Assembly: GCA_046563655.1 (NCBI GenBank)
Contig: CM102285.1
Coordinates: 1,302,001 to 1,366,000, forward strand
DNA from: Yuukianura sp. NJ FZ-2021
Lineage: Eukaryota
Reading direction: 5' to 3'
DNA: 64,000 nt
A program made the position numbers and the translations under genes. The notes beneath the pieces are model-generated. The model was not told the origin of the DNA, did not search any database, and saw only the letters and a program-made list of their open reading frames with translations. Of this stretch, positions 23,320-59,381 are shown piece after piece (within the stretch, counting starts at the first letter, position 1; every line of letters begins with the position of its first letter).

Positions 23320-24706
23320 TTAGAATGTGATTACTAAATTTTTGACATTTTCAACGACAATTGTTCCAAAAATTGTGAGAATGAATTCCCTCGAATCGAA
23401 TACAAAGTGGTTTCCAACTTGGAAATTAATTTGCGTTCGCGACTTCCAAAATCGGCGACTGCGTGTCATGTCGCGGTGAATTTTATTCCCTCCAACTCTG
23501 CAACATTTAACAGAGTTGATATGACAGAGCACTGCTAGAGTTATAGAGGTCTTTATAAAATAAGCGATCAATAGCGCAACGATGATGAATAGTTGAAGTA
23601 TCAGGATGTATTCCAAACTACCAAATTTGAAAAAGGCGTAAATAAACAGGATCATAACAGCCTCGCAAATGTACAAAGCAAATTCAATAATGTCAGCGAA
23701 CATTTGATTTGCAATGCCGTTGAGAACTTGGAAACAAATGAAAGTGAATTCATGGATTCCATTCTCAGAAGAAAGACAAGACACGAGTCGGTTTCTAAAA
23801 AAGAAATGCTTAGTTAAGAAATTTTACACAAAGTAAAAAATTTCGTTTCATTTGTTATATTTTTCTTGCTTTAAATCCATTAGCCAGTGGCGCACTACAT
23901 TGCCATAAATTAGCCCAAGATTTGCGAAGAGGAATACAGCAAACCCAGCATTAATGCCAGCAATACATGCGACAAAAGCTACAATACCCATTGCTGATCT
24001 CACCGAATATGTGTCTGGATTAGTATTTATACACAATTGCAGAATCTGTACAAAAACACTTTGTATAAAGTCTGTGATTTGATTGTTGCCAAACACAAAG
24101 AACCCGGAAATTGCAGGGGGAATGAATATTCGTAGGTAATGAAATGCCAAATTGATGAACTTGGAAACATTTTCGTATCCATCTGAGCCTTGGGCGTGTA
24201 TCGGCACTACATACTGTTGGTCTAGTATAAAAAGAAGCATTGGCTAAAATAGTTATTTCTAAAATCGGTCCGAAAATGAAAATTTTTCAACCGAAAATAA
24301 ATTTAGATAAAATGAGCGCAAATAGCTATCATAAATGAGACAACTTACTGAGTTTATTCATGAATTTTAAAAAGCATGATAATACGTACATTATTTCCTC
24401 CATGTAGAACAAATACCAAAATTGAAATCCACTCAACGCGAATGTCAACGTTAAAATTCCAACAAATAGAACAATTACACTTTCATTTTTGTGGAACGTA
24501 ACACATCCATAGATGTATAATACCATTAGCAAAACGTTTACGCATAGGCTGGCTTTTGTCAACAGTTTGGAAATTGCAAAGTTTTGGGAAATGATTGTAA
24601 TAACGTATCCTTCTTTAGTCAAAGTAACTTGAAAGGGGTAAATTCTCCACTTGTACCCAGCATTGACAGTTTTTAAGGCGTAGTCCCAGGTTGTCTTGGA
24701 TAACAT
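23320..24706 (-). CDS. 7TM chemosensory receptor-like family A, copy 3; exons 24349-24706, 23870-24221, 23320-23794
   Basis: Paralog with the same 358/352/475 exon sizes and an open reading frame. Confidence 0.75.
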
Positions 24707-26370
24707 TTTAAGAAAATGTTCAACTGAACCGGCCTAATCGACAACTAATTTAAAATTGCCACTAAGGTAAACTTAGGTGAAAAATTTTTCAATTTTTCTA
24801 AATGCAATATCCGACGCTTACAAATAATTCAACACAATTTTCAAATTCCTGTGAAACGTTTTTTAATAAGAGGAATTTTTGAAACGCTGTGCATAACATA
24901 CAAAGGGCTGAACGTATTTTTTCTTTTTGATATTAAAAAATTCACGCAAGTGGGCTGAAAATTTTTGAAAATATGGACTACCTCATTTTCCTTATTCAGT
25001 GCCCTTTGCTCGAATGACGGAAATTGTATGAAATATGCAAGGAGATGAACTGAAGTGGACGAAAGCTTTGAAAATTTACGCCCAACTCTTTGGAAGGAAA
25101 TGGTGGCCTACAAATTTCAAACCCACATCGTATGAAACAAAACCTTTCGTGTTTTGTTTTAGCACTTCTTACAGGCCTAGATTTGCATGACTAAAATTAG
25201 CACCCAGTTTGTTTGCTTTTGCTCGAGATTTTTTCCCCAAGAGCTATCTGACACTCGGGATTTCTCCAAAATGTTGCCGCAAATGGTGGGATCACGTTTT
25301 GGTGGGTTTCATTTGGGCGTTCCTTTGAAATTCAAAAATAGAAGCACTTGACGTCGAGGAACATGACGTCGAGAACATACAAAAGGCTGGAAGTATTTTT
25401 TCTTTTTTATATTAAAAAATTCACACAAGTGGGCTACACATTTTTGAAAATGTGGACTATCTCATTTCCCTTATTCAGTGGCTTTCGATGGAATGACGGA
25501 AATTGTATGAAATATGCAGGCAAATGAACTGTTTTTTTTACTTTCTACCTGCTGTAAAAAATGGAAACCGATAATTTTTCAAAAAGTTATTGATGACCAA
25601 GAACGTCTGAACGACGCCCTAGAAAATTAATGGCCAAACTTAAAGGAGAAGAATTTGGCGGGCTGCAAAAGCTGTAGGCTAGTCCAAGCTATAAACAAAA
25701 GCTACTAATGTTCAATCTGTTTTAGCACATCTTACACGCCTAGATTTTCAGGACAAAAATTAGCACCCAGTTTTTTTTCTCGAAATTTTTTTCTCCCAAG
25801 AGCTCCTGCCACCTCTGGCATAAATCAAAATGTTACTACGAATAGGATGACGTTTTGGCAGGTTTCATTGGGGCGTTCATGTAAAATTTAAAAACCGGAG
25901 CAGTTGAAGTTGAAATTCACGAATTTTTCACTTTTTCTGCCATTTGAAATTAAACTCTCAAAATACTCGGTTGTACCTCGGTTTTTGTACATTGCAAATT
26001 GTGCAAAAATCGATACAACCGAGTAAAACGAATACAATATGTTTATTGCGTTATAAATTGGGCCGGAGAAAATACAAACAAGCAAACAAATGGCGTTGGG
26101 CCGTTTTAGCAGAACAAATCCGAAAACATTCTTTATTTAACTGTACCTCAAGCAATTAGATTTTGAAGGTGAAACGATTTAGTAACAACTAGAATCAAGT
26201 CCAAGCAAACCTGACCCTAAATTTCTGCAATTTTTTATTTTTACCGAATTTCAAATTAAAACCGACTTGGTGGTCTGCCAGTAATAAAAATATTGCTAAT
26301 AATTACTTCTTCTCCTTTGTCGGCATATTCATACAGGCCATTCAAGTAGTGGGTAGAAAACTTGTATTTT

Positions 26371-28058
26371 TTAATTAATCCTAACAATAGGAATCAAGCT
26401 ACAGGTTAACGAAATTAGGCAAATACCGATAAGTAAAAAGATCAATTCGAACATACTTATACTCTCTTGCTCCGAATCAGTTTGCGCAGTCGTGTTGGAC
26501 GTCGTACCGTGGTTGAAAGGTGCGAGTTGGCCGGATCCAGACGAATTACTTCCAGCAGTTGACCATGGAACTCGGATATTAGTGCTCGGTGGAGTGACAA
26601 GAATTGGTGGGTTGTAGCCTGGCGTGACCTCTACTTCAACTAGATATCGGATGACAATTCGATTCGGATCGTAGACGACAAATTCGTTGTAGTTGAGGGC
26701 GTGTGTCGGGCAATTATTACATTTGGCAGTTTTTCCATAAGGTATGAGACACCCATGGATATCTCCAGTGTCACTCCAATCTGGAACGTAGGTTCCGTTT
26801 CCCCGGACACTGTCAAATCCAGGGGAGGAGCTGTCCAGGCACAGTGGTCTGTTTCCCAAGAATAGATATTTCCCAGTTTAACCTGAAATGACGGAGTTAA
26901 GGTATTAATTAGCTGGTTAAAAAATGTTTCACAGATTTGTTACAAATTATTACAGACAAGACGAAAACTTTACTGCGTACACACGGACAAGCAAAACATT
27001 TTTTCAGTATTAGGTCATTACTTTCAGGAGAGTGTTGGTGGATGTTTAAACGCCCAGTGGCTTAATTGTTACTTATCCACTGGAAGAAATGTACCCCAAA
27101 TGGACGAAAATATTAGTGGATGGAAGAAATTAAGAATTGTGCACAAAATTAACAAAAAAATAAGAAAAAGAAATCAGGAATATTTTCTTTCATCCTTAAA
27201 ATTAATTATTTATTTAAAACTCATTCAAAAACCATATTTCCTTCGTTTTTGTACAGTATTTTGAATTGTTTTTTGCATTTAATAGTTTTTAAAATCTTTA
27301 GTATTTAATTAATTGAAACCCCGCGGGCAAAGCTACGACCCTTTTGATTTATCCATTACGTCCATTTCTTCCACTGGATATCCAGTCGTAGACGAAATGT
27401 AGAAAAAGGGGATATCCACCAACACTCTTTCCGGACAAACAAACGAACCACACCATACGTTAGAATTAAAATAGATAATTGAAATACTATGTATGTTATA
27501 TAGACAACTGACCTCACACAGAAGTAAAAAAGTGTTGATACTAGCATCACAGTAGTTGAGTGATTTAGTAATCCGATCAGCAAAGTAAATTCCGGCCCCG
27601 AACATTTGTCCATTGAACTCTGGTAAAATAAATCCAGCATCCAGTATTTTCGGTATGTTTCTGCGTTTTGTTCCATGCCAAAGGAGTATTCTGTTGGGAA
27701 TTTCAAATAGGGTGTAACTACCCAATCGTTCACTCAACCGAAGGACAACATGAATATGGACGACCTTGAGACTGACGTTGTCGTGACACTGGCTGTTGTT
27801 GACATATTTAACTATTTTATGGTAGTCGGGTGCATCTTCATACAGTTTGAACAAGACATTTTGTTTGAGAAAGGATAATCTTGTGTCCAGCAATCCAGCA
27901 AGCCGTCTCAAGTCGTGCCGTTTTTCATGCAAATTAATTCCACACGAATCACAATCCTCTTCTGAATCATTCGTCCGGTCAGTACCATGACGAGAACTGG
28001 ACGAGTTAGTACGGAAGTCCTGTGCCGCTTGTTGTGCGCGAGATTTGTTGGACGCCAT
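26371..28058 (-). pseudogene. PARP catalytic-domain gene with C-terminal TM tail; 1-nt frameshift in exon 2 (exons 27513-28058, 26371-26882)
   Basis: LLWHGT, MFGAGIYFAD, YNEFVVY. Exon 2 is 512 nt, one base short near 26821-26830 relative to the paralogs, which could be an assembly error. Tail sequence is MFELIFLLIGICLISLTCSLIPIV. Confidence 0.75.
27030..27427. mobile_element. hAT-like MITE in the PARP intron
   Basis: 14-bp TIR gagtgttggtggat/atccaccaacactc and 8-bp TSD tttcagga/tttccgga (1 mismatch). Homologous to 48529-48888 in the opposite orientation. Confidence 0.75.
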
Positions 28059-30122: not shown

Positions 30123-31784
30123 TTACAAAATTGAGCATGGACAGCAAATGGGGTTAATAGCAGATGAGGTATTGGCACGACCTCGTTGGTTCGGCGTTCG
30201 AGCTGCTGGGTACGTGATGTACGGAGAAGACGAAGCTTGGACGGTGGTTCCAGCAGCTTGTCCATTTTGACGAACGGGAGCTTTTTGAGCAGCAGTTCTG
30301 GAACTAGAAACTGGATTTGCGTTGGTGGAGCTGAAACTGCCGTAGGTAGCTTGTGTACTTGAATTTGAATAGGATGAAACTTGAGAAGCAAATGCACTTG
30401 AGGAATAGCCAGTAGTTGATACATGACGTCCGTTAATAGTAGTGGTGCTACTTATTTGCCGCGTTTGAGTTTGTGTGATAGTTGCGGATAATCCTGGTGC
30501 AAGTCTAACAGTAGTAGTACGAGTTGCTGCCAAAGCTTTAGCACGAGCGGCAGTTAAAGTTGTTGCAGGAGTTGCTGTAGAAGTTGAATTACGAGTGGCC
30601 GTTGAAACTGAAGTTGAAGCAGGAGTTGCATAAGACGAGTAGTAAGTTTGGCCTGAATAAGGTGGTTGCTGCGGGCGAGTGACAGCGACAGTGGTGGCTG
30701 CGGTACTACGACTAACGGGTACAACTTGATTGGAAACGGTTGGATTGATTCGAACAGGCGTTCCTCTACGTCCATTTCCACGACTGTTAGTGTTGATACT
30801 GCTGGCTGGAGTGACAAGGAATAATGGTGACGGTGAGTATACTCGTGTGACCTCCACCTCCACCAGAAATCGAATGACAATACGTTTCGGATCGTAGACA
30901 ATAAACTCGTTATATTGGACGGCATGGCTAGGGTATTTGGTACATTTGGCAGTCTTTCCATACGGTATCAAGCAGCCCATGAATCGTCCGTTGTCAGTCC
31001 AGTCTGGAACGTATGTCCCGTTCCCCTTGACACTGTCGTATCCTCTTGGAGCACCTTTCCAGTCATTGTGTGCTTCTGCGCAGGAATATATCTTTCCCAA
31101 CGCAACCTGAATGACACGGATAACCAGACATAGTAAAATCAATCACATTAAACTAATAATCTAGTAAACCACATTATATAGTGTAGTAAACAAAATAGGC
31201 GAAAATCTAACCTCGCAAAGAAGGAGGAACGTGTTCTGGGAATCACTATAATTACTTGATTTAGTAATTCGGTCAGCAAAGTAAATCCCTGGGCCAAACA
31301 TCTGCCCATTGTGAGGTGGTAAGATGAATCCAGTCTCCAGAATTTTTGGTATGTTTTCACGTTTGGTTCCATGCCAAAGGAGCATTCGATTGGGTATGTC
31401 AAACAGCCCTTTCGGATCGTCTCGTTTCCAGACACGATGAATGCGGACGACTTTGAGACTGACGTCGGTATGACACTGACTGTTGTTGACGTAAGTAACA
31501 ACTTTCTGGTAATTGGGTCCATCCTCCCATAGTTTGAGTCCAGCATGTCTTCTGAGCAAAAATGAAGTTGTTCCCATCAACTGAGCAATTCGTTCCAAAT
31601 GTCGCCGCTCCTCCAGCAATTTTTGTTGCTCTTCCCACGTTTGTTCTCTCTGCTGCTCAGAATTATCGTCTTCTGAATCATCTGTGGATGGAAGACGACG
31701 ATAATCAGAAGAGCGGGATCTGGAATTATACGATGATGATCCTCTTCCTCGAGGCCTTCGAGAAGATCCACCGCCGGACGCCAT
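30123..31784 (-). CDS. Minimal PARP (ADP-ribosyltransferase, H-Y-E type) with Ser/Thr-rich tail and C-terminal CaaX, 518 aa; exons 31212-31784, 30123-31106
   Basis: LLWHGT...QMFGPGIYFAD...LLCE|VALG...YDSVKG...YNEFIVYD with a phase-0 GT-AG intron. The protein ends ...PICCPCSIL-stop. Confidence 0.88.
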
Positions 31785-33430
31785 TTTGATTTAGCAAGCC
31801 GGTTTAGTCTGAAATCAAAAAATCATATGTTACTTCCATGTCACTTGATAATATCATTACGTCCACGACTTTTCGAATACAAAACAATTCAAACAACCTT
31901 GATTACTACTGACGTCAATGGTAACAGTTACTTTAGGTTTAAAAATTGACAACTTATTAGGTTTTTGTGACAGACTCACAAATCCGTGTATCTGCAGCAA
32001 TTTTGAATCCTTTTTAGTGTTTTGTGTAATTCCGAATTCTGTTCCGTTGTTCCGTACACGATTCCGGATCCGATCAACTGTTAAATCAAAATGTTAAATT
32101 AAAAAAAAAATCCAGGTGATTGGTACTAATCTAGTGCATTATCTTACCAAATCACGACGAGCTCTTTTCCATACAATGCAAAACAAGAAAAAATGAGATG
32201 TTATGCAGTGCAGAGAGAGCATTGGATCCAGATCCAACTCCCAAGGCCAGCAAAGGAAACAATGCACCTAAAATCTGAAAGTGGTTATTTTTACAACTGC
32301 AGGGTTCGTAAATTCCCGGGTAAAGGATGGGTGCCTCAGGGTTATTTACATGGGAATGACATGTAGGAAACCAAACGCTCTTGCGCAATTCTACAGGTAG
32401 TTTAACAACGCTTTCTTCTTCAAAATTAAGCATTAATTCAGAATGTTACGTTAATTTAGTTGAGTCTGTTTCTTCGTTGGCCATCGTTTTGCAGGAAGTT
32501 CAGTGACCTCTACCCAAAGTGCAAGGTATTGGTCAATTCAAACGCACTAAAGGTCAAAGTTTCACCTTGTCCAATATTACTTGTACAATATTTTTTTTAG
32601 TAGATCACAAACAACCTGTAAAAATTAAATAAGAACAACTTTTCATGCTCCTTTGTCATTTCCGTAAATTTTACGATGACAGATTAACCTTGGAGTTTTA
32701 GTAACAGCCTACTAAAACACTCAAATTGCAAAGTCGTTTCTTCGTTTTAAAAACGAAAATTTGCTGCTACGATTCCAAATCTTGTTCGCATGGAACGTTC
32801 TGGTTTCATTCCATTAGCTATAAAAATCGCTTTATTTGCACTTTACAACCGGTTTATTTCATTTCGGTTTATTTCAAAATTCAAAATATGCTTTAAGGCT
32901 ATCCCTACTACTTGCATCTTAATTTCATATTTTATGTAATAGGATTGAATTTTAAATTCTACTTTCATCACTTTTTTATGCAGCTTTCCCTCGAAGAAGT
33001 AAAAAAAGTAATCAAGCGCGAATATTATTAAAAAACATGCCAGCCGGAGATTACTCCAGCAGAAAGGCACTAAAATTATTATAGTTTAATTTAGTTTGAT
33101 TAACTAAAAGTCAGTCGACGGGTATCAAAGTAGATTGAAAGATGAAATGAATGAAAATTTAAGTTCAACTTTGATCGTTTTCACTGCAGTCAAATTAACA
33201 CAGTCTTTCCTTCTTTACTTTAGTCATGACACCTTCGAAGTGTCAGACAGCGTTAGACAGACGTTGGGCACAGACTTGTTCTGTACAGTTGACGTAGTTA
33301 GCGGAAATAACTTTATCATTGAGGTTAACACTAGAATAGTTTTGGTTGCTACGACAACGGCACGATTTTGATCGTTATTTGAACAACACGAATTTTGGTT
33401 GTCAGGGCAACGCAGCGATTTTGGTGAGCT

Positions 33431-35146
33431 ATGATTTGTAAAGCGTCAATAAGAATAGTGTTAGGTGTGCTGGAAATGAGTTCCAAATTGTACCAAACTA
33501 CTTTTAAGTGGGATCCGGTTAACTACCGTTTGATCGCCATGGAACCGGAGTTCAAATGGAATAAATTTGTTGTAATTAAAATGAAACGGCTGTGGTTCAG
33601 AGTTGCCAACTTGGTCACAATCCTGTCACTTGCGTTTCGAATTGTACGGTTTCTTCAGGCAATATATATTTACGAAATGTCATACCAACACGTAATGTTT
33701 CAATGGTTAATCGTGCGTGATGCTGTCTACTCTGGGAACAACTCTTGTTATGGTGAGTGCTCTAAGAGTTGACGATTTGGCAACAGTGTACACCATGTTA
33801 CTTCGATACGACAAAATGTTAACAGGTAAAACAAATGCATCAGTATAACAAATTATTAAGTATTTTTTTTTTATAATTATTTATTAATAACGAATTTCAT
33901 CAACTTGTCTTTTTAGAGCAATATAAAACAGAGTATCCAGTTAAGGACAAGTTACTTCCTATACTACTGTTTTTTACCATGGTTCCTGCATTTCTCATCC
34001 CTGGACTTCTCCTGCTTTGTATGTTGAATCATAGCATGCCGGTTTACATTACTTCGTTACTCTACTACATACCACCAAATTTCAAAATTTTGCGCGCCCT
34101 GGTATTCATCCCTTTTCTTGGACTCGAACTTTGGCAAGCAACTATAACCGTTTGCATCGGCCTACTTTTTGTTACAACTACAGTGATGTTGTACCATTCA
34201 GCAACATTTTGGATTACGGAAATGAGGTACATATCCAACTACTGTGAGCGGAAATACTATATAAATATAATATGGATTATACAGACTGTATAATCTATAT
34301 TATCTGTATATTATCTGTACAGTATATATATTCTATGGATTATATATATAATATAAATTATAATATATTTAATAATATAAATATAATATAATTTATATTT
34401 CCCGTTTATGCTATATTTTAAAATAAATATAAATTTGAATCTACACAAACAATATGGTGTACCATACCATATGGCATACCATAATGCTGTTGGGTAAGTC
34501 ATGTAATTATATAGAGGGTTTACCGTATAAAACTAAGTTGCTATACGAGAGCGCCATCTGTATCTAAAAAATAATTCCTGACGATGTTTTTACAGCTCCG
34601 TTGCGAAAATGCCGGGATACTCCGAGTTTGACTCGAACCACCGAACGCAAAATACGCTCCGCCGACCTTCTAGTGTGCTCAGCGTCTACAGATCCTGGCA
34701 AGTAATTCTGCGGTGGTTCAGCGAAGTAATGGATTTTGGCATTACTGGACAGCACTTTATACTGGTTATTACACTCATCATTGGAGCATACTCTACGATT
34801 GCTTTTTGGGGAGATCATAACCTAGAGTCCATTCAAGCCTTTTTGTCCTTTGCCGTTTATCCTGGAGGATCCTTCGTCGTTTTCGTTTGGATTGTACTGA
34901 TCCAACCAATGTGTGCAAATCTGTCAATCAAATGTGAGGAATTGAAGACAAATTGGATATGGCAGTCGCACTTGCTTATGCGCAGAGCACATGGCGTCGA
35001 GAAAGGAAAGGCTTTGAGGAAATCCATTGTTTCATGTCAAATACTAACTACTCATGTACACGTTTTTTGCGTACAAAGTTAGCACAATGCCGCAACTTCT
35101 GGACGAATGTGTTGACAAAACCATCATACTCTTGCTGGGACTTTAA
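33431..35146 (+). pseudogene. 7TM chemosensory receptor-like family B, frameshifted copy
   Basis: Paralog of 38510-40099. Exon 1 is +4 nt (near 33715) and exon 3 is -2 nt (near 35060) relative to the intact copies. Confidence 0.75.
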
Positions 35147-35505: not shown

Positions 35506-37188
35506 TCAAATAATGACGAGTTCAGAGTTTGCACGGCCGTATATGGCACGATGTGCGTAGAACAAATCTGTGAGTGCTGCTATGTACTTGGAATGAACTT
35601 CGTCAATATATTCCTGGCTTGGATTGGCTTGTAGCTCCACAGGGATTGGTGCACCGACTGAAAAAGAGAAATTTTGAATATGATTTTCAACATCTTGATT
35701 ATATTTTTCAAAAATCCTACCGACTGTAGTAATTGGACATCGTCTTGGAAGAATTCCAAATGAATACTGAAAAATTCCTCTGCCTAAAACCAAAACTGGC
35801 GCTCCCCCGAAGAGATCTGTGCATTTATCCTGGAAATTCCTAAGCCAAGATCCCTTCGGGTTCTTCAGTTGAGAATAAATGTCGGTTTCACCAAAACTGT
35901 AAATTGGCACTAGTGGTGCTCTGAAATACAAAATTTTGAATTTTGAAACTGCCCGAAGCTTTAGGAATTTTCAAATTTCAGGTTTCATAAGGCTACGCAC
36001 CCATTTTCGATAGCGACCTTGATAAATCCTTTTCGTTTTTTCAAGTAGACTATGTCTGTTCCGGGAGAGGAGTAAAGCACTATAAGGTCAGGTTATAAAA
36101 TTTAGTTAATAGTTTTACTCAGAAAATCAAATTTTTAAAATGTTTTTTGAAAACTGTTTCGCCGTTACTAACTTTCACGGCCTCCCCCAGGTGAAATTAT
36201 CAAGCCGTTTCCGACGCCGCTTTTACTCAACAAAAAATTTATACCTTCCCGCGATACGGAACATACACCTGAAAATGGTGAAGTTCAAAAAGTTATGAAA
36301 TTTAAACCAAAATTTTGCTTTGAACTTCAAATTTAACGGTACCACACGCTAACGCGACATCTCGAAATACTGGAATTCGGAAAAGCAAGTCAAGAGTTTG
36401 TAAGGTTATTTTGATTCCAGGGAAAACTTGACTGACATTGGTGCCCTCGGTCGCAAAATTTCCATAAAAACCTTCACGTTTAACATAAAATTAAAGTCTC
36501 AAAAATTTCAAAATTTTCTAAACGTTTTGAAAAAAAAAAGTTGCTCTTGCCGGAACATAAAATTCCATGGGGGTGGCACACCAATAAGTAGTTCCTGGAT
36601 GGATCCAATTCCGTTGTTTTCACTAACCGAATTGGAAAGTAATTGCAGTACCATTTCCACAGTCTCAAGTTCCGAAAGACATCAAACCTTCAAAAAAAAA
36701 ACAATTCTTTGAACTTTCAAAAAAAATCAAAATTTTGAAACTGTTTTGTACCTTCGTCCTCCTAGTCTCGCAATATTTCTATCGTAAATCATCCAAGTGA
36801 TGTAGGCAAGTCCGAAATACCAGTAACTGGTGTACAGTAGAACGTAAATGAGCAATAGTGGACCAAGAACAAGAAGTGACCAGAAAAACAGCCATGAGAG
36901 AACGCCAAACTGGAATTAGTTATAATAATTATTATAATAACTTTATATAAATTTATGGTCTTGAATTATATACATATTTTCATTACAGTTTCCAAGCGCC
37001 TTGACCATGGAATACAAAGCGGAGCAAACTCAATCAATCTAAAAAAACATTTTTTTGGAAAATTAGAAAGTGAACATAAATTGTAGACATAAAGCCTCTG
37101 AAACCAAAGTTCAAAAAACTATGTTTAGAAAAATTAATTTAAAAAAATTTACTCACCTTTTTCGCTGTAGACACTCTGTAGTTTCCAT
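35506..37188 (-). CDS. DGAT2/MOGAT-family acyltransferase, copy A (9 exons)
   Basis: [34 protein letters not shown] motifs. Exons were walked through in frame; one donor is GC (36549-36550). Confidence 0.85.
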
Positions 37189-38509
37189 TTTAACTCATCG
37201 TTTTTTCTTTTTGTGTTGAAAAGTGTTTAGGTTTTTCGAAAATTTAACTTTTTTGCACGGAAAATTTTGGTTAGGGCATTCTTTCCAGGAATGTCATTCA
37301 CTCACTAAAGTAAAATCTTGAAAAGAAGTATTTTTTTTAAGAAGAATATCGCGCTCAGTGTAACTTGAATTTTGTATTCACATTCATCAAATGCATGTGA
37401 TGGCGTGTTCTACTTCTATGCTTAAACAAATTTACACAACATAACTTTCCAGTTTCTGCAGGCGTGGGAAGATTGTACATAAGATAAATTTAAGTTTTCT
37501 GTTTAGCGTAATAATGGAAATTTTAGCATGGAAATTAGTGTGAGGTTGGGCGTTGTTTTTTATTGGTCGTTCCAACACGTTTCTAATTAAAATTCTGGAG
37601 CCAATATTTACAAGGTTCCTTGACAACGGAATTGTAGTTCTGCGGCAGGATGTCCAGTAACTCTGGATTTTCAAAAATCTCGAAAGAATAATTGTTTTTC
37701 TCCAATTTTCTTCCAATGTGTATTATATAACATGTAAATCATGACCATAGAAAATACACTGTAGCGGTAGCCTGAGATTCTTCGAGAAGAAAGGCGTTGA
37801 ACTTCTGATTTAATGTACTTTAATTAAGTAAAAACCAGTCGAAGAGTCTTCAAAAATATCAAATCAAATACATAAAATGAAATTTAACACACAACTTTCA
37901 TAGTTTTGGCAAATATTTTGCAACCAGTTTATTTCATTTCGGTTGATTTCAAAATTATACGTCTTTAAGGCTATCCCGACTACTTGGCATCTAATTTCAT
38001 ATTTTATGGAACAGGGTTTAATTTTAAATTCTAATTTCATCACTTTTACGTGGCGGTCGCTGGAATAAAACAAAAAGTAATCAAGCTCGACTTCTTAAAA
38101 AACACGCTAGCCGGAGATTACTTCAGAAGAAAGGCACTAAAGCTACTATATTTTAATTTACTTTAATTAAGTAAAAGTCAGTGGACGGGGTTCTAAATAG
38201 ATTGAACGATGAAATGAAGATTTAAGTGCATCTTTGATCGTTTTCATTGCAGTCAAATTGAAAAAAAGGCTTTTCTTCTTTACTTTAGTCATGACACCTT
38301 CCAAGTAGTGTCAGACTGCGTTAGACCGACGTTGGACACTCACCTACTCAGCACACGATTGACGAATAAGCTAACAGAGAGGTAACTTTATCATTGAGGC
38401 TGACACGGGAACAGCGTGTTTTGGTTGCTAAGACAACGCCACGATTTTGATCGTTATTTGAACAACGCAAATTTTTGTTGTGAGGGCAACGCAGCGATTT
38501 CGGCGAGCT

Positions 38510-40099
38510 ATGATTGGTAAAGCGTCGCTCAAAATAGTGATAGCTGTGCTTGAAATCAGTTCCAAGTTGTACCAAACTACTTTTACGTGGGATCCCGTTA
38601 ACTACTGTGTTGTTGCCAAGGCACCAGAATTCAAATGGAATAAATTTGTAACATTTGGAATAAAGCGGGTAGGGTTCAGAGTTGCCAGCTTGGTCACAAT
38701 CCTGTTACTTGCATTTCGAGTCGTACGGTTTTTACAGGCAATATATATCTACGAAATGCCATATCAACAAGTAATGTTTCAATGGTTAATCGTAACGATA
38801 TCTTTTTTCGGATCGACTCTTGCTGCTGTGAGTGCTCTAAGAGTTGACGATTTGGCAGCATTGTGCACTATGATCCTTCGATACGACAAAATATTAACAG
38901 GTTAATGCATTAATCTAACTAATTAACTGAAAAACTAGATATTAACTAATTAATTATTAACAACGAATTTCAATAACTTACATTTTTAGAGCAATACAAA
39001 ACAGTGTATCCAGTGACGGACAAGTCACTTCCCTTTCTCCTGTTTTATACCGCGTCTCCTGCATTTTTTATTCCTGGACTTCTACTGCTTAACATTTTGA
39101 ATCCTAGTATGCCGGTATATCCTACCTCGCTACTCTACTACATACCGCCAAATTTCAAAATTTGGCGCGTATTGGCATTTGTGTTCCTTCTTGGGGTTGA
39201 ACTTTGGCAAACGGCGGCTATATTCCTTTGCAACTGCCTCGTTTGTGCTACAATTACAGTGACGTTGCTCCATTCAGCAACATTTTGGATTACAGAAATG
39301 AGGTACATATCCAACTACCGTAATCGGAAATATTATATAAATACAATATGTAATATATATTTTATATTATTATATTATAATATAATATAAAATAAAATAT
39401 AACTCAGCACAAATAATAAGTTATAAAACGGGTAGCTATTAGGGTGAGTGATGTAATCGGAGGGCTTACGGTATCAAAGTAAGTTGCTATACGAGACGGC
39501 CTGTTGTACTTAAAAACAAATTGACGATATGTTTTTACAGCTCCGTTGCGGAAACACATGGAACTGGATACTCCGAGTTTGACTCGAACCGCCGGACTCA
39601 AAATACGCTCCGCCGACCTTGTACCATACTCAGGGTCTACAGATCCTGGCAAGTAACTCTACGGTGGTTCAGCGAAATACTGGATTTTGGCATTACTGTC
39701 CAGCACTTTATACTGGCTATTGCACTCATCATTGGAGCATACTCTACGATTGCTTTTTGGGGAGTTCATAATCTAGAGTCCATTCAAGCTTTTTTGTCCT
39801 TTGCTGTTTATCCAGGAGGATCCTGTGTTGTTTTCGTTTGGATTGTACTGGTCCAACCAAAGTGTGCAAATCTATCAATCAAATGTGAAGAATTGAAGAC
39901 AAATTGGATATGGCAGTCGCATTTGCTCATGCGCAGAGCACATGGAGTCGAGAAAGGAAAGGCTTTGAGGAAATCCATTGTGTCATGTCAAAGCCTAACT
40001 CTTCATGTACAGCCGTTTTTTCCCTACAAAGTTAGCACAATGCCGCAAGTTCTGGACGAATGTGTTGACAAAACCATCATACTTTTGCTTGGACTTTAA
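38510..40099 (+). CDS. 7TM chemosensory receptor-like family B, 420 aa; exons 38510-38900, 38990-39302, 39541-40099
   Basis: In-frame GT-AG splicing, multiple TM helices, and a C-terminal RKSIVSCQSLTLHVQPFF...STMPQVLDECVDKTIILLL motif. Confidence 0.75.
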
Positions 40100-40463
40100 A
40101 AAAAGCGTTTTTATTGCGATAACGATTAATGGTACTCCTTAGAATATAACTTCATTAACACAAAGAGTGGAAACATTTTTCTCATAGACCAGAACAAGCA
40201 ATGCAGTGCAATACCAGTTAACTAAATTATACAAGTAATAGCAACAAGTGAGCCAATTTTGGAAGGTTTGTTACAAATTGTTAAACATGGGCGAAAACGT
40301 TACTCTACGGAAAGACACACACAGATTTTTTTTAGTACTAAGTCATCACTATACGGACATAGACCACATTTCGTTAATATTCAAAGTCGGACACACAAAC
40401 AAACCAAACATTTCGTTAGTATTAAAATAGTTGAAATAATGTATATGTAATATACACCATTAA

Positions 40464-40950
40464 CCTCACCTCCCATAGTAGTAAAAACGTGTTGTGCTTG
40501 TCACTGTAGTTGCTTGATTTCGTAACTCGATCAGCAAACTAAATTTTGCGCCGAACATTTGTTCATCTAACTGTGGTATAATGAATCCAGCATCCAGTAT
40601 TTTGGTTATGTTTCTAGTTTTGCTCCGACGTTGTTCCAATCGATATTTTGTTTATTTTTTCTTAACAGGTTATACCATAACTCTTTGTTTCTTGATTTTA
40701 AATTTTTTGAACCTCACATCTTGTGCTACGCTTACGCTGCGTAGCAGCGTTGCGTTAGTAATTCGACATCAAAATTATAGATTCCTATTGCAAAAGCGTA
40801 AGGAAGAGGCAATATTTTTGGTTAGACAACAAAATTGGTCCAAAAGTTGTTTTTTTTCTTATTTTTTGTTTGAAAAATCTGAGTTATTATATAACCTAAT
40901 ACGGCATTTGTATAAATAGTCGCTCTAGAAACCTTGGTTTTGTTCCATAC
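40464..40950 (-). pseudogene. PARP exon-1 remnant
   Basis: Degenerate ILDAGFIIPQLDEQMFGAKI*FADRVTKS. It is interrupted at the HGTK codons by an insertion, and the rest is deleted. Confidence 0.7.
40625..40936. mobile_element. Degenerate P-family MITE inserted in the PARP remnant
   Basis: The right end gtcgctctagaaaccttg matches the autonomous TIR at 16/18. The subterminal aggtta..ata.ctc motif occurs near both ends. 8-bp TSD gttttgct/gttttgtt. The left terminus is diverged. Confidence 0.6.
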
Positions 40951-41294
40951 TAAAATTTTAAAACACTCATTTTTTTAACTGTATTGTGCAAACAAAGGCC
41001 CCCCAAAGCCTTAAGGAGGAACCTAAAACGGGCGAGGACTTAAGGTAAACCTATTTTTAGTTTTCTTTTTCTGAAGTTTTTTTTTTTTTTTTGAAAATTG
41101 TGAACAAATTTTTTTCTTTGTCTGATCCCTTGAAACGCTAAAGGACATAAAACTAAAAGTCTGAAGTTAGTCTCCTCATTTTTGTTTGTTCTGTCTGTTC
41201 ATTTGCTTTTTATACTTTTTTCTGCTCGAAATACTTTTTCTAAAAAAGATCATACAGTTGATAAATTCAATAAGTGTGAGAAAAAAGGGCGAAA

Positions 41295-41886
41295 ATGTGT
41301 CAGGACCAGCAGTCATCTACACAAAATGGAGAAAATGAGCAGAGTCGTCGTTATTTTACTCTTTTTGATTTGCCACAACCGGTACGATTGGTTTCTGTTT
41401 ACACAGATTTTTTTAAATTCTAGTAGGTATAACAATATAAAAAAAAGAAGTTTATTTTTCAATTTTTAGGCAATTTTTGAAATTTTGAGTTTTTTGGATA
41501 CCCCATCGCTGTTGGCTTTACGTTTGACTTCAAAAGCGGCAAAATCCTGCGTTGAATCGACTCCCGAATGCTTTCAAAATCTAAGAGTTCACGTGACAGA
41601 TGAAGACAGGCTGGAGGAAATTTTAAATCACTCGAACGTGGAGTGGATGAGCGCCAGTATTTCGCCAAGTTTGTGCAACTTGAAAGGAATTCCATTTTTG
41701 ATCAAATTCAAATCTTCCCTCCAAATCATCCGAATTGAAAGGAAGGACTCAGACTGTAGTTCATTTTCAACTGATGGACTTGTCAAGTTTCTGACCAACA
41801 CAAGCCCAAATTTAAAATCGCTGGATATCGCTGAAGACTTGGAACTTTGGTTCGTCAGCGCCATGTTCCAATTTTTACACTTTTGA
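41295..41886 (+). CDS. Short F-box protein (~167 aa) with LRR-like tail; exons 41295-41381, 41470-41886
   Basis: The spliced product reads FDLPQP|AIFEILSFLDTPSLLALRLTSKAAKSCVE (F-box pattern), followed by PNLKSLDI. It may be a truncated gene. Confidence 0.65.
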
Positions 41887-43617: not shown

Positions 43618-46600
43618 CTATGCTACTGGATCACCGCACAATGCAAATTGGTTCCCCTTTCCCAAGTTACGAATACGACCTTTCAGGAGATGAAGCTTCT
43701 GGTTCAAGTGTCTCAATCGTAGAAATGTCCTGACCCTTGCATATCGTTTCACGACACCAGCGTCGATAGTTGGAAAATCGTGAACAATCATTGACTCCAG
43801 TCGACTTATGACGCCAGGATCCTTACATACATGTCCTCCATGCACCCTGAAATATATTTATCTTTTAGAGAAAAAAATTTAATATTGGAAAACGCTGAAC
43901 GTACTTTTCGAAATACGATTCCCACAATTCCATGAGGGACATCATTCGTTCGGAAGGAACAGTGATGCCACCGCGAGAGAGCCTCTGACACCAACTTTGT
44001 GGCAATCGGTTCTCATCCAACAAGACCAAGTCAGGATTCGTGTCCTTGAAATTTCTCAAAATGTAGCCGGCGACGTACTCCAGACCAGAATTCTCACATT
44101 CATCAGATCGTGACCGTTTTCTTTTTCTGGATGTAGATGGAGGGTCAAAGTTGGCGCAATAATCAGTGTTAATCTGAGGAAACAAAAGTGTAATTTTTAA
44201 CAAAAGTGCGGAATCGAAATTTTAATTCATGTAACTCACTTTGACGGTATCATCCTCGATCAGTTCCTGCAAAACGTCGCACAATCGAGCGAGCTCTTTG
44301 TCATCCGTTTCCATTGACAAAAGCCAGATCAAAGCCAGAGTTCTCAGACGATATTTTGCGTCAACAGCCGTCATGATGACTTTGAAGCCTCCGATTCCTC
44401 TCATAATGCAAAAAGCATTTTCTGCCACATCTTGATTCAACCTATTGATGGCCATGTACCTTACTCCTTGGGATGTAACCAAATCTTGAAACAGATTTTT
44501 CACGGAAGTAATCGTCATCAGAATTCCCTTCTGGAAGGGTAGTAAGGATTTCAGTCTTGGGTGGTTAACCTTCATCTTTGAAACCATCTAAAAATTTAAC
44601 TGTTTTAAATAATGTAAGCGTTAAAAATTGAAAATTTGCTTTGTAATTTGTACCTGGTACAGCTTATCCAAGGTTTGATTCTGCGCTTCGAGGTGGACTC
44701 CGTAGCACTGCTTCGCTGGATTCTTTTCTTCTCTAATCCTGGAGTTCAAAAGGTCAAAACCATCCGAAATCAAGCGTATAAATTGACTTTGCGACTTCTT
44801 GGCGGGAAACAAGAACTCAATAGCATGGGAAACTGAATTTGACAGGGTCTGAAAAGCCATTCTGGCATTTTGTCTTTCGGAATTCTGGACTTCAAGATGG
44901 CGTCTAGTGAGCTTATGGCAAATTCGTAGCTCCGAACGATCGTGTTTAAGCAATTCCTCAAATAGATCTGCAACGTAAGAATATTTCAATTAAAATTTCA
45001 TTTAAATATAAATTCCGTTAGATGGCGCCACCGTCGACCCCTCGGGACCTCAGTAGTTCCAAGTTTGGCCGCTAGATGGCGCCACCGTCGACCCCTCGGG
45101 ACCTCAGTAGTTCCAAGTTTGGCCGCTAGATGGCGCCACCGTCGACCCCTCGGGACCTCAGTAGTTCCAAGTTTGGCCGCTAGATGGCGCCACCGTCGAC
45201 CCCTCGGGACCTCAGTAGTTCCAAGTTTGGCCGCTAGATGGCGCCACCGTCGACCCCTCGGGACCTCAGTAGTTCCAAGTTTGGCCGCTAGATGGCGCCA
45301 CCGTCGACCCCTCGGGACCTCAGTAGTTCCGACTTTGGCCGCTAGATGGCGCCACCGTCGATGTCAGAAATAACTTAAACTCACCCTTTGTTACTTGATA
45401 CCCATCAGGAAGTGTAAGTCCCCAGTCGAAGATGTTATTCCTGAGCAATTTGATAAGATGTACCGGATCAGAGATGCAATAAATACGATGTCCAGTCACG
45501 GGATGTGGGAAAGAAGTATTAGTGAAACTGACATTCAATCTTGTCCAAATCCCTCTGTTGGCCCCAGAATTATCGCACGTCATGGCGGAAGGTATCAATC
45601 CAGCGTCGTGTAACTTTGACATAATTTCTTCAATTGTATCTCGCTGAAACTTTACGTCGTACCCCATGAAGATTGGAATTTTCCAGGATGCAAAAATACC
45701 TCTGGCAAAAACTACCATAAAATTCTTGGCACCTCCAAGGACTTGATCCAAAGAAGTATCGTAGCAGTAACTGCCGTCCAAGTTCATTTCGTCAAATGTG
45801 ACACAACAATACCTAGTTGAACAATTGCAAGTGATTTAGTTATGATTTTCTGCTTACATTTTGTTACGTTCTAACCTAGACAATTGAGGGGCATCGGTGA
45901 ACTTTGATTTTATGAAAACAATCAGATCATTTAGAATTCCTGGGCGGATGCTGATATTTTGAAGCCAGTTCTGTAAAGTTCTGACGCAAGGAAGTCGGAT
46001 GTTCCAGTTATTTCTCACAAACTCATAAGCTGATTTTGATTTAACCCTTAAACGCATAGCTTTCAAAATGTCTTCTACGGGCCACCAAGTTTTTGTTTTT
46101 GACGACAGTAGCATATCCAGTTGACATGGGGTGACTATCTGAAAATATAACATATTCAACACATTGCATTAAATTACACTAAATAGTGGGACGTCTGACG
46201 TGAAACTCACTTTGTTGAGAACATCGTTTTGGGCTTCCATTTTCTGGGTCAGTTTTTTCAAACAATTTTCCAGTTCCGTAATTCTGACTGACTTAGCTTG
46301 GACCAACTTCCGGTACCCCAGAATTACTTTCTTGTGATGGTGTTGTCTGGACTTGTCTTTTTCGGAGTAAGTGAGGCGAAGGAATTTGATGTGCTTCTTA
46401 CATTTCTTCCATTTCTCTCGAAACGACAACTTTTTTTTTCCAACGTGAATCGGTTGCGTATTAACTGAAATAAATCATAATGAGTTAACAGTTGATAGGG
46501 ATATTGTGTTAGAGTGCGAATGCAATTACTTGGTTTGACTAGAGGAACTGGAACTTGGCCCTTTGGTAGCCTTTTGACATTCTCCGGTAGATTTGGGAAA

Positions 46601-46770
46601 TGATGGGAACATACTCTTGAAGAGTCGTTGAACTTGGTAGAGCAACTGGCTTCCCAACTTTTACGAATTGCTTCTGGTTTTGGCACTCGAAACAACTTAG
46701 TCTTGCATTCACCAATCTTCACTTTGTAGTCACTGTTCAGACAGTCTGGAACTGAGCAATAATGCACCAT
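43618..46770 (-). CDS. P-element transposase, ~781 aa, 8 exons (46530-46770, 46211-46464, 45876-46138, 45385-45812, 44654-44967, 44240-44587, 43905-44173, 43618-43846)
   Basis: THAP domain (CSVPDC...FRVP...W...VCSHHF...VP), FDEM, TCDN, DPVHLIKLLRN, ERQN, QDVAEN and YVAGY motifs. All seven GT-AG introns are phase-compatible, giving 2346 nt without a stop. Confidence 0.9.
45019..45361. repeat. 54-bp tandem array (6 units + partial) in transposase intron 4
   Basis: The unit tagatggcgccaccgtcgacccctcgggacctcagtagttccaagtttggccgc starts at 45019, 45073, 45127, 45181, 45235 and 45289, with a partial copy at 45343. Confidence 0.97.
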
Positions 46771-51554: not shown

Positions 51555-51836
51555 CTCGGATAGGAGTAAAAACGTGTTGTGAGTATCACTGTGTACTTGC
51601 TTGATTTAGTAACTCGATCAGCAAAGTAAATTCTGCGCCGAACATTTGTCCATCTAACTCCGCTATAATGAATCCAGCATCTAGTATTTTCGGTATGTTT
51701 CTGCCTTTTGTTCCATGCTAAAGTGGCATTCTGTTGGGAATGTAAGATAGGTCGCTAGGCTCTTTTCTTCGACTGGCATGAAAAATGCGGAAGACCTAGA
51801 GACTGACATTAGTGTGACATTGACTGCTGTTGACAA
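51555..51836 (-). pseudogene. PARP exon-1 remnant
   Basis: VNSSQCHTNVSL...PNRMPL*HGTK...MFGAE.YFADRVTKS, with a nonsense codon at the Trp of WHGT. Confidence 0.75.
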
Positions 51837-52601
51837 TTTGTTGTGGCTTTTTATACTTTTTATTCTGCTCGAAATATTTTTTCTCCAAAAATTATATAGT
51901 CGCTAAATTCAAAAATTGACTCCATTAAAATGTGTCAGAACCAGCAGTCTAGGAGACTTAGCAGTGACCTGATTTGCCATATTTCTGCAAATAAATTTTA
52001 ATATATTGGCTAGTCGATTTCTAGTTAGTTTCTGTATGTTTTCGTCAAACAGCGTCCGCTGTTTCCTAATTCTATTTTTGAAACTCATTAGAATCCTTAT
52101 AATTCAAGCTGGCCTATGTGGAATCCGCCACAGCTGCAAAACAACACTCCATTCATAGCCCAAAATTTTTACAATAGATATGGCAACAGATAACCAACTT
52201 CCATAGAAACACTAAATACTGAAAAAAAATGGAAATGAAATGGGAAAGCGTTGAGATTAACCAACAGAGACACAAAAAATTGAATTTGAAACCATGCTTT
52301 CAAATACTCTTAATAAAAAACTTGAAATAAACAAAGATATAAAAATTCCGATATATTTGAGAAAAAAAAATTCGCTGTGAAGGTTTATTCAATTTTGGTT
52401 TACAACTGGCAGATGCGTTTTCTAAACAAGAGTATAACGTCATAACTTAAAATTAATCAGTTATGGTGTAAATTAATCTGGTAAACACGTACAGCAGAAA
52501 AAATAATTTATATTGTTCGCACAAAATTAATAAGTGACCTAATAAATCAATCAATTAATTAGTCTAATTTATGAAACTGTGAATGGTAAAAGTTAGAATG
52601 A

Positions 52602-57808: not shown

Positions 57809-59381
57809 TCATTTACTCGTAAGACAAGCAACCAATGTGAAGGTAACAGTTAACAAAATTATGCAACTACCGGCAAATTTACCAATCCAGTCGAACATAC
57901 TCGTCTCCTGATCTAAATCAGTTTGCGCAGTCGCATTTCTGGTCGTACCGTGATTGACCGGTACAACTTGAGTCGTACCGTCATTGACCGGTACAACTTG
58001 AGTCGTAGCGTGATTGACCGGTACAACTTGAGTCGTACCATGATTGACCGGTACAAGTTGACCGGATCCTGACGAACTACCTCCATCAGTTGACCCTGGA
58101 TCACAGTTAGTAGTGCTGGATGGGGTGACAAGAACCAGTGGGGTGTAGCCACGTCTGACATGTACTTCTACTAGATATCGGATGACAATCCGTTACGGAT
58201 CGTAGACGACAAACTCGTTGTAGTTGAGTGCATGTTTCGAGTATTTGGTACATCTGGCAGTTTTTCCATACGGTATCAAACACCCATCGAGTTCTCCACT
58301 GTCAGTCCAGTCTGGAGTGTAGGTTCCAGTTCCCTTGACACTGTCGAATCCACGAGGAGGCGCTGTCCAGTCACTGTGGTCTTTTTTGCATGAATGATCT
58401 TTCCAAGTCCAACCTGAAATGACGCAGTAACATAGTTAATTTAGATGTTTTAAAACATAGTACTTCACATATTTGTTCAGGCAGCCGTACACACAGACAG
58501 ACGCAGATTTTATTAGTATTAATTAAGTCATGCTATTTACGTTACGGACAAACAGACGCATATTAAAATACATAGTAATTGTAATACAGTAGAACCTCTC
58601 ATCTCGCAACTCTGACTAGTTGGTTTGAGTGTTTGGCGACTACACTGTAAGGCTCTAAATTCTAGCACATCGTCTGAGGTATTGCAATTATTGTAACGCC
58701 TAAATGTGTTGTTAACAATACAACTCCCTCCAAAAAGAATTTAAATTTTACGGTACACGGACGTCGGCAGATGTGTAGCCAAATGTTGCGTCATGAGAAG
58801 TTCTGCCGTATTATGTTATGTAAACAGCTGACCTCACAGAGAAGTAGAAACCCGATGGTCGAGTACCTATCGTCAGCGTACTTGCTTGCTTTAGTGACTC
58901 GATCAGCAAAGTAAATTCCGGCGCCGAACATTTGTCCATCTAACTCTGGGATAATGAATCCAGAATGCAGTATATCCGGTATGTTTCTGCGTTTTGTTCC
59001 ATGCCAAAGCAGCATTCGGTTGGGTATGTCAATTAGCCTTTTTGGATCCCATCGTCGTCGTACACGATGAATACGGACGACACTGAGATTGACATCAGTG
59101 TGACATTGACTATACTCGACATAGGTACTAACAATTTTCTGGTGATTGGATCCATTGTCACACAGTTTGAGCAATGCATTTCTTTTGATGCAAGTGGATG
59201 TTGTATCCGTCAATTGAGCAATTCTATGCACGTAGTACAGTTCTTCTGGCTGATTCAATTCAATTTTGTGCCAACCATAATCGTCTTCTGAATCATCTGT
59301 CCAGTCCGTACCATGATAACTGGACGAATCTGTGCGGAACCAGTGTGCCGATGCTTTTTCACGAGATTTTCTGGGCGCCAT
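57809..59381 (-). pseudogene. PARP pseudogene with TM tail; exons 58833-59381, 57809-58413
   Basis: H-Y-E motifs are present, but there is a 1-nt deletion near 58395 and an in-frame TAA (YDP*RIV, ~58193-58195). Confidence 0.8.
57941..58060. repeat. 30-bp x4 coding tandem repeat in the PARP tail
   Basis: agtcgtaccgtgattgaccggtacaacttg units encode QVVPVNHGTT-like decapeptides on the minus strand. Confidence 0.9.

Follow-up and report, generated by a model that had tools for sequence, protein, structure and literature searches.

We found that a springtail gene encodes a PARP1/2/3-type catalytic domain that stands alone, without DNA-sensing or autoinhibitory modules, and that continues into a long, basic, disordered tether ending in a prenylation (CaaX) box of the CaaL form. 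The gene lies on the minus strand of a 64,000-nucleotide (nt) stretch of contig CM102285.1 (positions 1,302,001 to 1,366,000) in assembly GCA_046563655.1 of Yuukianura sp. NJ FZ-2021, referred to here as the window, which is AT-rich eukaryotic DNA of about 36% G+C (Table 1). The product is probably an ADP-ribosyltransferase (ART) that is anchored at membranes through its CaaL box. Membrane tethering is well supported by sequence comparison, because the CaaL ending is conserved, the tails that carry a CaaX box are basic, and both the paralogues in the window and a more distant pair of proteins (P0046 and P0117) swap the CaaX box for a hydrophobic anchor. A preliminary description of the gene had proposed a lipid-anchored, DNA-independent PARP acting at membranes, a proposal that gains support from the CaaL invariance, the basic tails, the anchor swap and a fold match to PARP1 constructs that lack the helical domain (HD).

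A stand-alone PARP1/2/3-type catalytic domain

The coding sequence occupies exactly the span that the preliminary description had assigned to it, from an ATG at 31784-31782 to a TAA at 30125-30123. In-frame stops in the intron, which the preliminary description had not mentioned, are seen when tblastn reads through it and mean that the intron must be removed. Consistent with this structure, the Pfam PARP profile (PF00644) divides exactly at the junction, positions 3-115 reaching the final residue of exon 1 (E = 4.5e-21) and positions 116-198 starting with the opening residue of exon 2 (E = 3.1e-12), and the position of the splice junction is identical in two paralogues, A and B, in the window. 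An in-frame stop lies 9 nt 5' of the ATG, and the stop-to-stop open reading frame (ORF) opens with IKMASGG. A polypyrimidine-AG acceptor (ttttttgatttcag, near 31812 on the minus strand and about 25 nt 5' of the ATG) suggests an intron in the 5' untranslated region; it does not provide an N-terminal coding extension, because an in-frame TAA lies between the acceptor and the ATG. One 239-nt contig from an RNA library (30751-30989) matches the gene with no mismatch, running unbroken from the catalytic domain into the tail, and is a weak hint of transcription.

The composition of the protein agrees with the Arg/Ser-rich plus acidic N terminus and the Ser/Thr-rich tail of about 230 residues that had been described earlier. 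The N-terminal 60 residues include 11 Lys/Arg, 12 Asp/Glu and 13 Ser. The tail after LVEVEV comprises 241 residues including the CaaX box, of which 34% are Ser or Thr, 20 are Arg or Lys and none is Asp or Glu (net charge +20), and the protein ends in NPICCPCSIL-stop, with the CCPCSIL terminus noted before. A tandem-repeat origin of the tail was ruled out by a repeat scan, which gave three trivial low-score rows. In all three window copies, namely the CaaX gene and both paralogues, the N terminus contains a Ser/Thr followed by a short cluster of acidic residues (TDDSEDD, TNDSEED and TDDSEDD; starts 31784, 28058 and 59381, respectively), which is not present in the homologues from other species and which we take to resemble casein-kinase-2/acidic-cluster sorting motifs.

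PF00644 scored 75.7 bits in exon 1 and 46.9 bits in exon 2, against a curated cut-off of 26.7; it covered profile positions 3-198 of 199, and no other Pfam family passed its own curated threshold in either exon. The intact H-Y-E, PARP1-like core recognized in the preliminary description was borne out: H138 lies in LLWHGT (codon 31373-31371) and Y168 in GIYFAD (codon 31283-31281), both in exon 1, and E258 lies in YNEFIVYD (codon 30908-30906) in exon 2. The residues of the NAD+ site are complete (His138-Gly139, Tyr168, Lys175-Ser176, Tyr179 and Glu258), on what we presume to be the correct match to PARP1 residue numbers. The His, Tyr and Glu were unchanged in all seven homologues of one alignment (A1) and in all 50 sequences of a second (A2), in which the Gly and both Tyr of the NAD+ site were also invariant and the Lys and Ser were conserved in at least 90%. 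A phmmer search of Protein Data Bank (PDB) sequences returned 42 distinct sequences for exon 1 (E ≤ 1e-3) and 42 for exon 2 (E ≤ 0.01), all of them PARP1, PARP2 or PARP3 catalytic domains. The best match was PARP2 (E = 1.7e-13, exon 1), and neither tankyrases nor PARP16 were among the matches of either exon. Only one or two short gaps interrupt the alignment of PARP1 and PARP2 with residues 1-85 of exon 2, a stretch that contains the catalytic Glu and reaches the end of the domain.

Pfam, tblastn and the stop upstream of the ATG agree that the zinc fingers, BRCT, WGR and helical domains are missing, as had been claimed. Pfam gave no match to the WGR domain (PF05406) in the protein and none to the autoinhibitory helical domain (PARP_reg, PF02877) in either exon, and tblastn gave no match to WGR parts anywhere in the window. 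When five multi-domain PARPs were compared with the window by tblastn, convincing matches (E ≤ 1e-5) were obtained with their catalytic parts only, all others having E ≥ 0.016. No coding sequence for WGR, BRCT, zinc-finger or helical domains was found within the window, and the 11 close homologues described below carry PF00644 alone.

To place the domain structurally, we used an AlphaFold2 (AF2) model of a close homologue, P0013, which is about 65% identical to the window protein in the core; the model was made from a 50-sequence alignment. It had a pLDDT above 90 over approximately residues 12-245, which form the ART fold with only two short helices ahead of it, and a disordered tail with a pLDDT below 50. 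The top Foldseek matches were PARP1 ART or HD-deleted constructs (5ds3, 6bhv, 6nri and 8u4w), with TM(target) values of 0.82-0.86, a root-mean-square deviation (rmsd) of about 2 Å and about 238 of 237-244 residues aligned. Among these, 5ds3 is labelled 'constitutively active PARP-1' and 8u4w 'helical domain deleted PARP1'. By contrast, PARP1 catalytic (CAT) chains that retain the helical domain mostly gave TM(target) values of 0.55-0.60 and an rmsd of about 5 Å, with the exception of 4zzz_B, in which 221 columns aligned at an rmsd of 2.0. Because the best structural fit is to HD-deleted constructs, which are covered along essentially their whole length, the protein appears to be a natural counterpart of HD-deleted PARP1.

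Conservation and exchange of the putative C-terminal anchor

Two protein searches (7 hits, and 19 hits at E ≤ 1e-10) yielded 11 close homologues of 301-434 residues that scored 535-739 bits, the next best protein scoring 129 bits. The preliminary description had proposed a search of other taxa for proteins that pair a PARP domain with a CaaX box, and we found that all 11 close homologues end in C-x-I-L (CVIL in six, CTIL in four and CAIL in one). In alignment A1, C387, I389 and L390 are the only invariant columns after P299, and the tails are otherwise unalignable. Scanning 1.84 billion representatives with HMMER produced 4754 hits to the PARP domain. Among the 152 non-family proteins retrieved in all (P0014-P0165), only one, P0046, has a Cys at position -4 (CTLS), and nearly all the others end with the domain. 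The CaaX ending is more than chance, because it is found in 11 of 11 homologues compared with 1 of 152 other PARP-domain proteins.

In the window protein, the Cys lies exactly four residues from the C terminus and Leu occupies X, which fits the rule for geranylgeranyltransferase I (GGTase-I; PMC10940682, PMC11152559). Ile at a2 fits the aliphatic rule, and a1 is Ser where the homologues have Val, Thr or Ala. In a yeast reporter, human GGTase-I is reported to geranylgeranylate few such sequences completely, CVIL and CTIL among them (PMC11152559). CVIL is also reported as the geranylgeranylated box of FBXL2, in which the neighbouring Cys417 and Cys419 are palmitoylated (PMC9988375), and CTIL as a canonical prenylation box in OAS1 p46, where it is required for antiviral action (PMC7612834). 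All 12 CaaX tails, the window tail among them, are net basic (+5 to +20, the window tail being +20), whereas both tails with a transmembrane segment have a net charge of -2. A prenyl group is classically paired with a basic stretch as its second signal, for example in K-Ras4B (PMC10940682).

The window contains one intact and four broken PARP copies within 33 kb. Paralogues A and B have an exon structure like that of the CaaX gene, and their tails are homologous to each other and end in hydrophobic segments rather than in a CaaX box. The maximal Kyte-Doolittle value over 19 residues (KD19) is 2.61 in the C-terminal segment of A, IFLLIGICLISLTCSLIPI, and 2.29 in that of B. A 1-nt frameshift disrupts paralogue A near 26825-26821, within a run of C where an assembly error is possible; alternative acceptors do not rescue its frame, both downstream AG sites being out of phase. 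We also considered glycosylphosphatidylinositol (GPI) anchors for the hydrophobic ends and rejected them, the N termini being hydrophilic (Arg/Ser/acidic) with no hydrophobic signal-peptide-like stretch; judged from sequence, a tail anchor fits better. The KD19 of the window CaaX protein peaks at 1.21, inside the ART fold, which indicates that it has no transmembrane segment. The other CaaX members reach at most 1.34, except for the N-terminal extension of P0008 (1.88), and none has a C-terminal hydrophobic anchor.

We built a tree of 45 rows from the three copies in the window together with P0003-P0017, P0022-P0047 and P0117, omitting P0018-P0021 and the remaining proteins above P0047. In this tree the copies from the window group together (SH-aLRT 87), A and B being sisters (98), and this clade is nested in a 14-member family (99) whose remaining 11 members all have a CaaX box. 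Because the window clade nests in an otherwise all-CaaX family, the CaaX ending appears to be ancestral and the transmembrane tail a local replacement. A separate clade of minimal PARPs provides what seems from its sequences to be an independent repeat of the exchange between lipid and transmembrane anchors: P0046, with its putative farnesyl-type box CTLS after Lys residues, and P0117, with a hydrophobic end (KD19 2.23), are sisters with an SH-aLRT of 100. A search with exon 2 of paralogue A gave no intact relative with a transmembrane tail and only the CaaX member P0007, although long candidates may crowd out relatives in this search.

Within the window clade, the CaaX copy has the shortest branch (0.13, compared with 0.41 and 0.36 for the paralogues). 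The ratio of nonsynonymous to synonymous substitution rates (dN/dS) was 0.23-0.30 between the CaaX copy and the paralogues and 0.61 between the two broken copies; these crude Nei-Gojobori values indicate direction only, as synonymous change is close to saturation (dS 0.9-1.5) when the CaaX copy is compared with the paralogues.

Proposed mechanism and alternatives

From these features, we infer lipidation, membrane residence and constitutive activity of the window protein, and propose the following mechanism. Cytosolic GGTase-I would add a geranylgeranyl group to the CaaX Cys, and the usual cleavage of -aaX and carboxymethylation would come next. The basic tail and the two upstream Cys residues, which may be palmitoylated, would act as a second membrane signal that strengthens and directs binding. 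Held by its long tether, the catalytic head would then lie on the cytosolic side of the membrane, where it could modify targets within reach of that tether. With the helical domain missing, the NAD+ site would be open constitutively, like that of HD-deleted PARP1 or of tankyrases, which lack this domain and are described as constitutively active (PMC7050482). If the site is open in this way, location, not DNA breaks, would decide what is modified.

Several points weigh against this reading. The a1 Ser of the window CSIL is not aliphatic. In a CxIM series, Ser, Ala or Leu at a1 gave approximately 50% modification by GGTase-I, compared with 100% for Val or Ile (PMC11152559), and CSIL itself has no occurrence in the main text of that paper. 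The 11 homologues do not represent 11 independent lineages, nine of them forming one shallow clade. As A and B are broken, the transmembrane half of the swap argument draws on pseudogenes and P0117. The structure model is that of the homologue P0013 and not of the window's own spliced protein. The sole RNA contig spans neither the intron nor the 3' end and comes from one environmental RNA library, in which DNA carry-over is possible. Regarding catalysis, the D-loop is four residues shorter than that of PARP2 in the HMMER alignment, and H-Y-E is no guarantee of polymerase activity, as PARP3 and PARP4 illustrate (PMC9189837).

The last two points bear on the alternative that survives best, namely that the protein is tethered to membranes but is strictly a mono-ADP-ribosyltransferase, like PARP3, or mainly an NAD+ consumer. 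We give this alternative slightly less than an even chance. PARP3 and PARP4 keep H-Y-E yet mono-ADP-ribosylate, with the D-loop implicated (PMC9189837), and PARP3 is among the PDB matches of a protein whose own D-loop is short. However, the protein matches PARP2 and PARP1 better than PARP3 both by sequence and by fold, the 85 residues to the end of the domain follow PARP1 and PARP2 closely, as noted above, and tankyrases, which also lack the helical domain, are described as making polymer. Whether the enzyme extends chains (poly or oligo) rather than adding single ADP-ribose units is, in our estimate, a toss-up.

A second alternative accepts the enzyme and places it elsewhere: C-x-I-L could be a degron or a docking motif, of the PDZ type or another, in a protein that is soluble in the cytosol or nucleus. 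CTIL and CSIL also match the class-I-like PDZ ligand pattern, S/T-x-hydrophobic. Moreover, Ser at a1 is suboptimal for GGTase-I, and import into the nucleus or binding of nucleic acids could be the role of the Arg/Ser-rich N terminus and the basic tail. This alternative is nonetheless improbable. PDZ and degron rules leave the invariant Cys at -4 unexplained, CVIL and CAIL miss the S/T rule, and CVIL and CTIL are, in the reporter study cited above, complete GGTase-I substrates. The paralogues, in addition, did not merely lose the motif but exchanged it for a hydrophobic anchor, and the tails are basic only where a CaaX box is present.

It is very unlikely that the CaaX box is used but delivers the protein, as it does lamins, to the inner nuclear membrane or chromatin periphery, with a tail that binds nucleic acid or poly(ADP-ribose), in which case the enzyme would not be independent of nucleic acid. 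Lamins are farnesylated and of the CaaM type, which counts against this possibility. The tails of the paralogues with a transmembrane segment are acidic to neutral, so that basicity follows the lipid anchor rather than a role in nucleic-acid binding, and the N termini of the homologues lack the Arg-rich stretch. A CaaL box with basic or Cys second signals is, moreover, typical of plasma-membrane or endomembrane proteins, of which FBXL2 is one. The tail charge of +20 with no Asp or Glu over 241 residues, the Arg-rich N-terminal stretches as a possible import signal, and the precedent of prenylated nuclear lamins (the lamin CaaX is treated in PMC11152559) speak for such a destination. Least probable of all is that the gene is silent or decaying within a birth-and-death family, its open frame and CaaX end being leftovers that no longer serve a function in this species. 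In favour of this possibility, only one of the window's five PARP-like copies is unbroken, the evidence of expression is a single short contig and compositional bias helps to keep frames open (other frames of the tail are open over 113-135 codons), but the 518-codon frame is free of lesions, its splice junction is intact, all catalytic residues are present, the CaaX copy has the shortest branch of its clade and a lower dN/dS than the broken pair, and its ending still obeys the family rule C-x-I-L.

Distribution, neighbouring genes and related systems

Two CaaX-clade members have an identified species: P0009 belongs to the springtail Folsomia candida, and P0010, on a 5.4-Mb contig, to the fungus gnat Bradysia coprophila. 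Springtails are also the source of the next-nearest minimal PARPs with an identified species, which have no tail; Orchesella dallaii contributes three, located on a single 1.17-Mb contig, and F. candida is the other source. As the nearest identified tail-less relatives are from springtails, the family looks like a Collembola expansion of stand-alone PARP heads, one branch of which seems to have gained a membrane-anchoring tail.

The fungus gnat protein (Diptera, Sciaridae) is 69% identical to the Folsomia protein, ends in CTIL and falls within the shallow nine-member clade; no other identified insect was found among the close homologues (at least 535 bits). For terpene synthases and some P450s, it has been suggested that Sciaridae acquired genes from soil micro-arthropods (PMC11665903). 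P0010 may reflect another gene transfer, or contamination, or patchy retention.

Scans of metagenome contigs with the A1 profile and with exon 1 gave no relative. A scan of viral contigs gave four loci with PARP-like segments of 27-39% identity, with no close relative and no pointer to a viral vector, and an ESM Atlas look-up of P0013 returned generic PARP-domain clusters only. Full-text searches of the available literature returned ZAP-L papers and general reviews, with no description of this CaaX-PARP family or of a lipid-anchored, catalytically active PARP among the titles listed, and the genome papers that came up for springtails and PARP contain no mention of 'ADP-ribose polymerase'.

Table 1 Features of the window on the PARP gene, its copies and the neighbouring genes
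Feature	Position	Strand	Description
PARP gene, coding span	30123..31784	-	two exons, intact, 518 aa
Exon 1	31212..31784	-	191 codons; ATG, disordered N terminus, two short helices, first half of catalytic domain
Intron	31107..31211	-	105 nt, GT..AG, phase 0; in-frame stops inside; Pfam profile continuous across junction
Exon 2	30123..31106 (coding 31106-30126)	-	327 codons + TAA; second catalytic half, then tail
Tether	30138..30848	-	disordered, Ser/Thr/Ala/Pro-rich, basic, acid-free (from composition); no Pfam match
C-terminal CCPCSIL	30126..30146	-	CaaX box CSIL at 30137-30126; extra Cys at -7 and -6
Paralogue A	26371..28058	-	exon 1 28058-27513, exon 2 from 26882; hydrophobic tail end, no CaaX
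Paralogue B, pseudogene	57809..59381	-	frameshift just into exon 2 (58413); in-frame TAA 58195-58193
Decayed PARP fragment	51575..51891	-	stops and frameshift
Short decayed PARP fragment	40461..40544	-	in-frame stop
Giant ORFs, tandem	131-5101; 8851-13686	-	intron-less; 1656 and 1611 codons stop to stop
Three-exon gene, six tandem copies in all	17775-24733	-	appears rich in hydrophobic membrane-spanning-like stretches
Same gene, rest of the six copies	33428-35082; 38462-40099; 49301-51215	+	
Segmental duplications	40461-41886 vs 57809-60424		PARP copy or fragment, then near-identical F-box ORF (41470-41886, 60008-60424)
DGAT2-type acyltransferase exons, four	35506-35970; 54991-55425; 60987-61367; 63440-63904		
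Transposase gene, P-element type	43865-46776	-	THAP domain, TNP-like RNase H; several ORF pieces
Repeat within transposase gene	44966-45373		18-codon unit about six times in tandem; open on both strands

Other features of the window include expanded gene families and a transposase gene (Table 1). The two tandem giant ORFs start with a P-loop NACHT-like region that scored 22 and 19 bits (Pfam cut-off 26.7) and contain a pentapeptide-repeat block above the cut-off; their remaining approximately 1000 residues match no Pfam family, and the ORFs are possibly NLR-like. The three-exon gene with six copies had no Pfam match in the three ORF pieces of each of the two copies scanned, and perhaps encodes membrane proteins. 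Segmental duplications make up the region, and DGAT2-type acyltransferase exons occur in it four times.

The preliminary description had raised a role in defence. The case for such a role is circumstantial: it is based on the tandem birth and death of copies, the NACHT-like neighbours and the likeness to prenylated ZAP-L and OAS1 p46. An extended version of this idea strikes us as unlikely. It holds that HD-less, constitutively active PARP1-type polymerases on a geranylgeranyl leash serve springtails and a sciarid fly as cell-autonomous effectors of immunity or stress, with lipid or transmembrane anchors and tether swapped repeatedly as copies arise and decay, in the manner of an arms race. 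Such enzymes would write ADP-ribose on, or locally burn NAD+ at, membrane-bound targets such as viral replication compartments, and the sciarid copy would have arisen by transfer or patchy retention. If this were true, the protein would be the first lipid-anchored, catalytically live PARP and part of a membrane-surface poly(ADP-ribose) system.

The preferred reading of a membrane-tethered enzyme has consequences of its own. Textbook H-Y-E PARPs are nuclear sensors of DNA breaks or scaffold-recruited tankyrases, and the membrane-bound PARPs in the literature searched are PARP16 and ZAP-L, discussed below. The window protein would be a natural form of what has been engineered as 'constitutively active' HD-deleted PARP1, with control shifted to the subcellular address. 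If active, it would carry out (poly)ADP-ribosylation at the membrane surface and offer a simple system in which to study the targets of an unregulated PARP1-like enzyme in two dimensions. The repeated exchange of CaaX box and transmembrane helix can be seen as a natural experiment suggesting that the C terminus serves anchoring, and the occurrence in springtails and a fungus gnat points to possible gene transfer between soil arthropods.

The closest known likeness is to the ART of PARP1 and PARP2, especially HD-deleted PARP1 (5ds3, 6bhv and 8u4w), with which the protein shares the fold, the NAD+ site and H-Y-E. Unlike PARP1 and PARP2, to which it is about 28-30% identical, it has no zinc fingers, BRCT, WGR or helical domain, and its D-loop is shorter; unlike HD-deleted PARP1, it is natural rather than engineered and adds a 241-residue basic tail and a CaaL box. 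Tankyrases (PARP5a/b) also have H-Y-E and no helical domain, and are described as accessible to NAD+ and regulated by recruitment (PMC7050482), but they have ankyrin clusters and a SAM domain, no lipid anchor, and gave no match at E ≤ 1e-3 in the PDB search.

Regarding the anchor, the boxes of OAS1 p46 (CTIL) and FBXL2 (CVIL) are identical to those of 10 of the 11 homologues, and the upstream Cys-x-Cys arrangement of FBXL2 resembles the CCPC of the window protein. In both proteins the lipid is reported to place the protein at endomembranes or the plasma membrane, although the domains that they carry (nucleotidyltransferase and F-box/LRR) are unrelated to PARP. PARP16 (ARTD15), a small PARP held on the cytosolic membrane face through its C terminus, has an architecture like that of paralogues A and B, and is described as the only PARP so far shown at the endoplasmic reticulum and nuclear envelope by way of a transmembrane domain at its C terminus (PMC9189837). 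It is a mono-ART without the catalytic Glu and is anchored by a transmembrane helix, whereas the CaaX protein of the window has H-Y-E intact and no transmembrane segment.

The combination of PARP domain and CaaX box is not without precedent, because ZAP-L (PARP13.1, the long isoform of ZC3HAV1) ends in a farnesylated CVIS and has a catalytically dead triad, Y-Y-V; its prenylation is reported to direct it to endomembranes and to be essential for function (PMC8568172). In ZAP-L, however, the farnesylated box directly follows the PARP domain, which belongs to a different PARP clade and is accompanied by CCCH zinc fingers and WWE, whereas the springtail protein has a live H-Y-E triad, a geranylgeranyl-type CaaL box, a 241-residue tether and a PARP domain alone. 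It appears to be a membrane-addressed PARP of a known sort, but its combination of a live PARP1-type head with a geranylgeranyl-type anchor is new.

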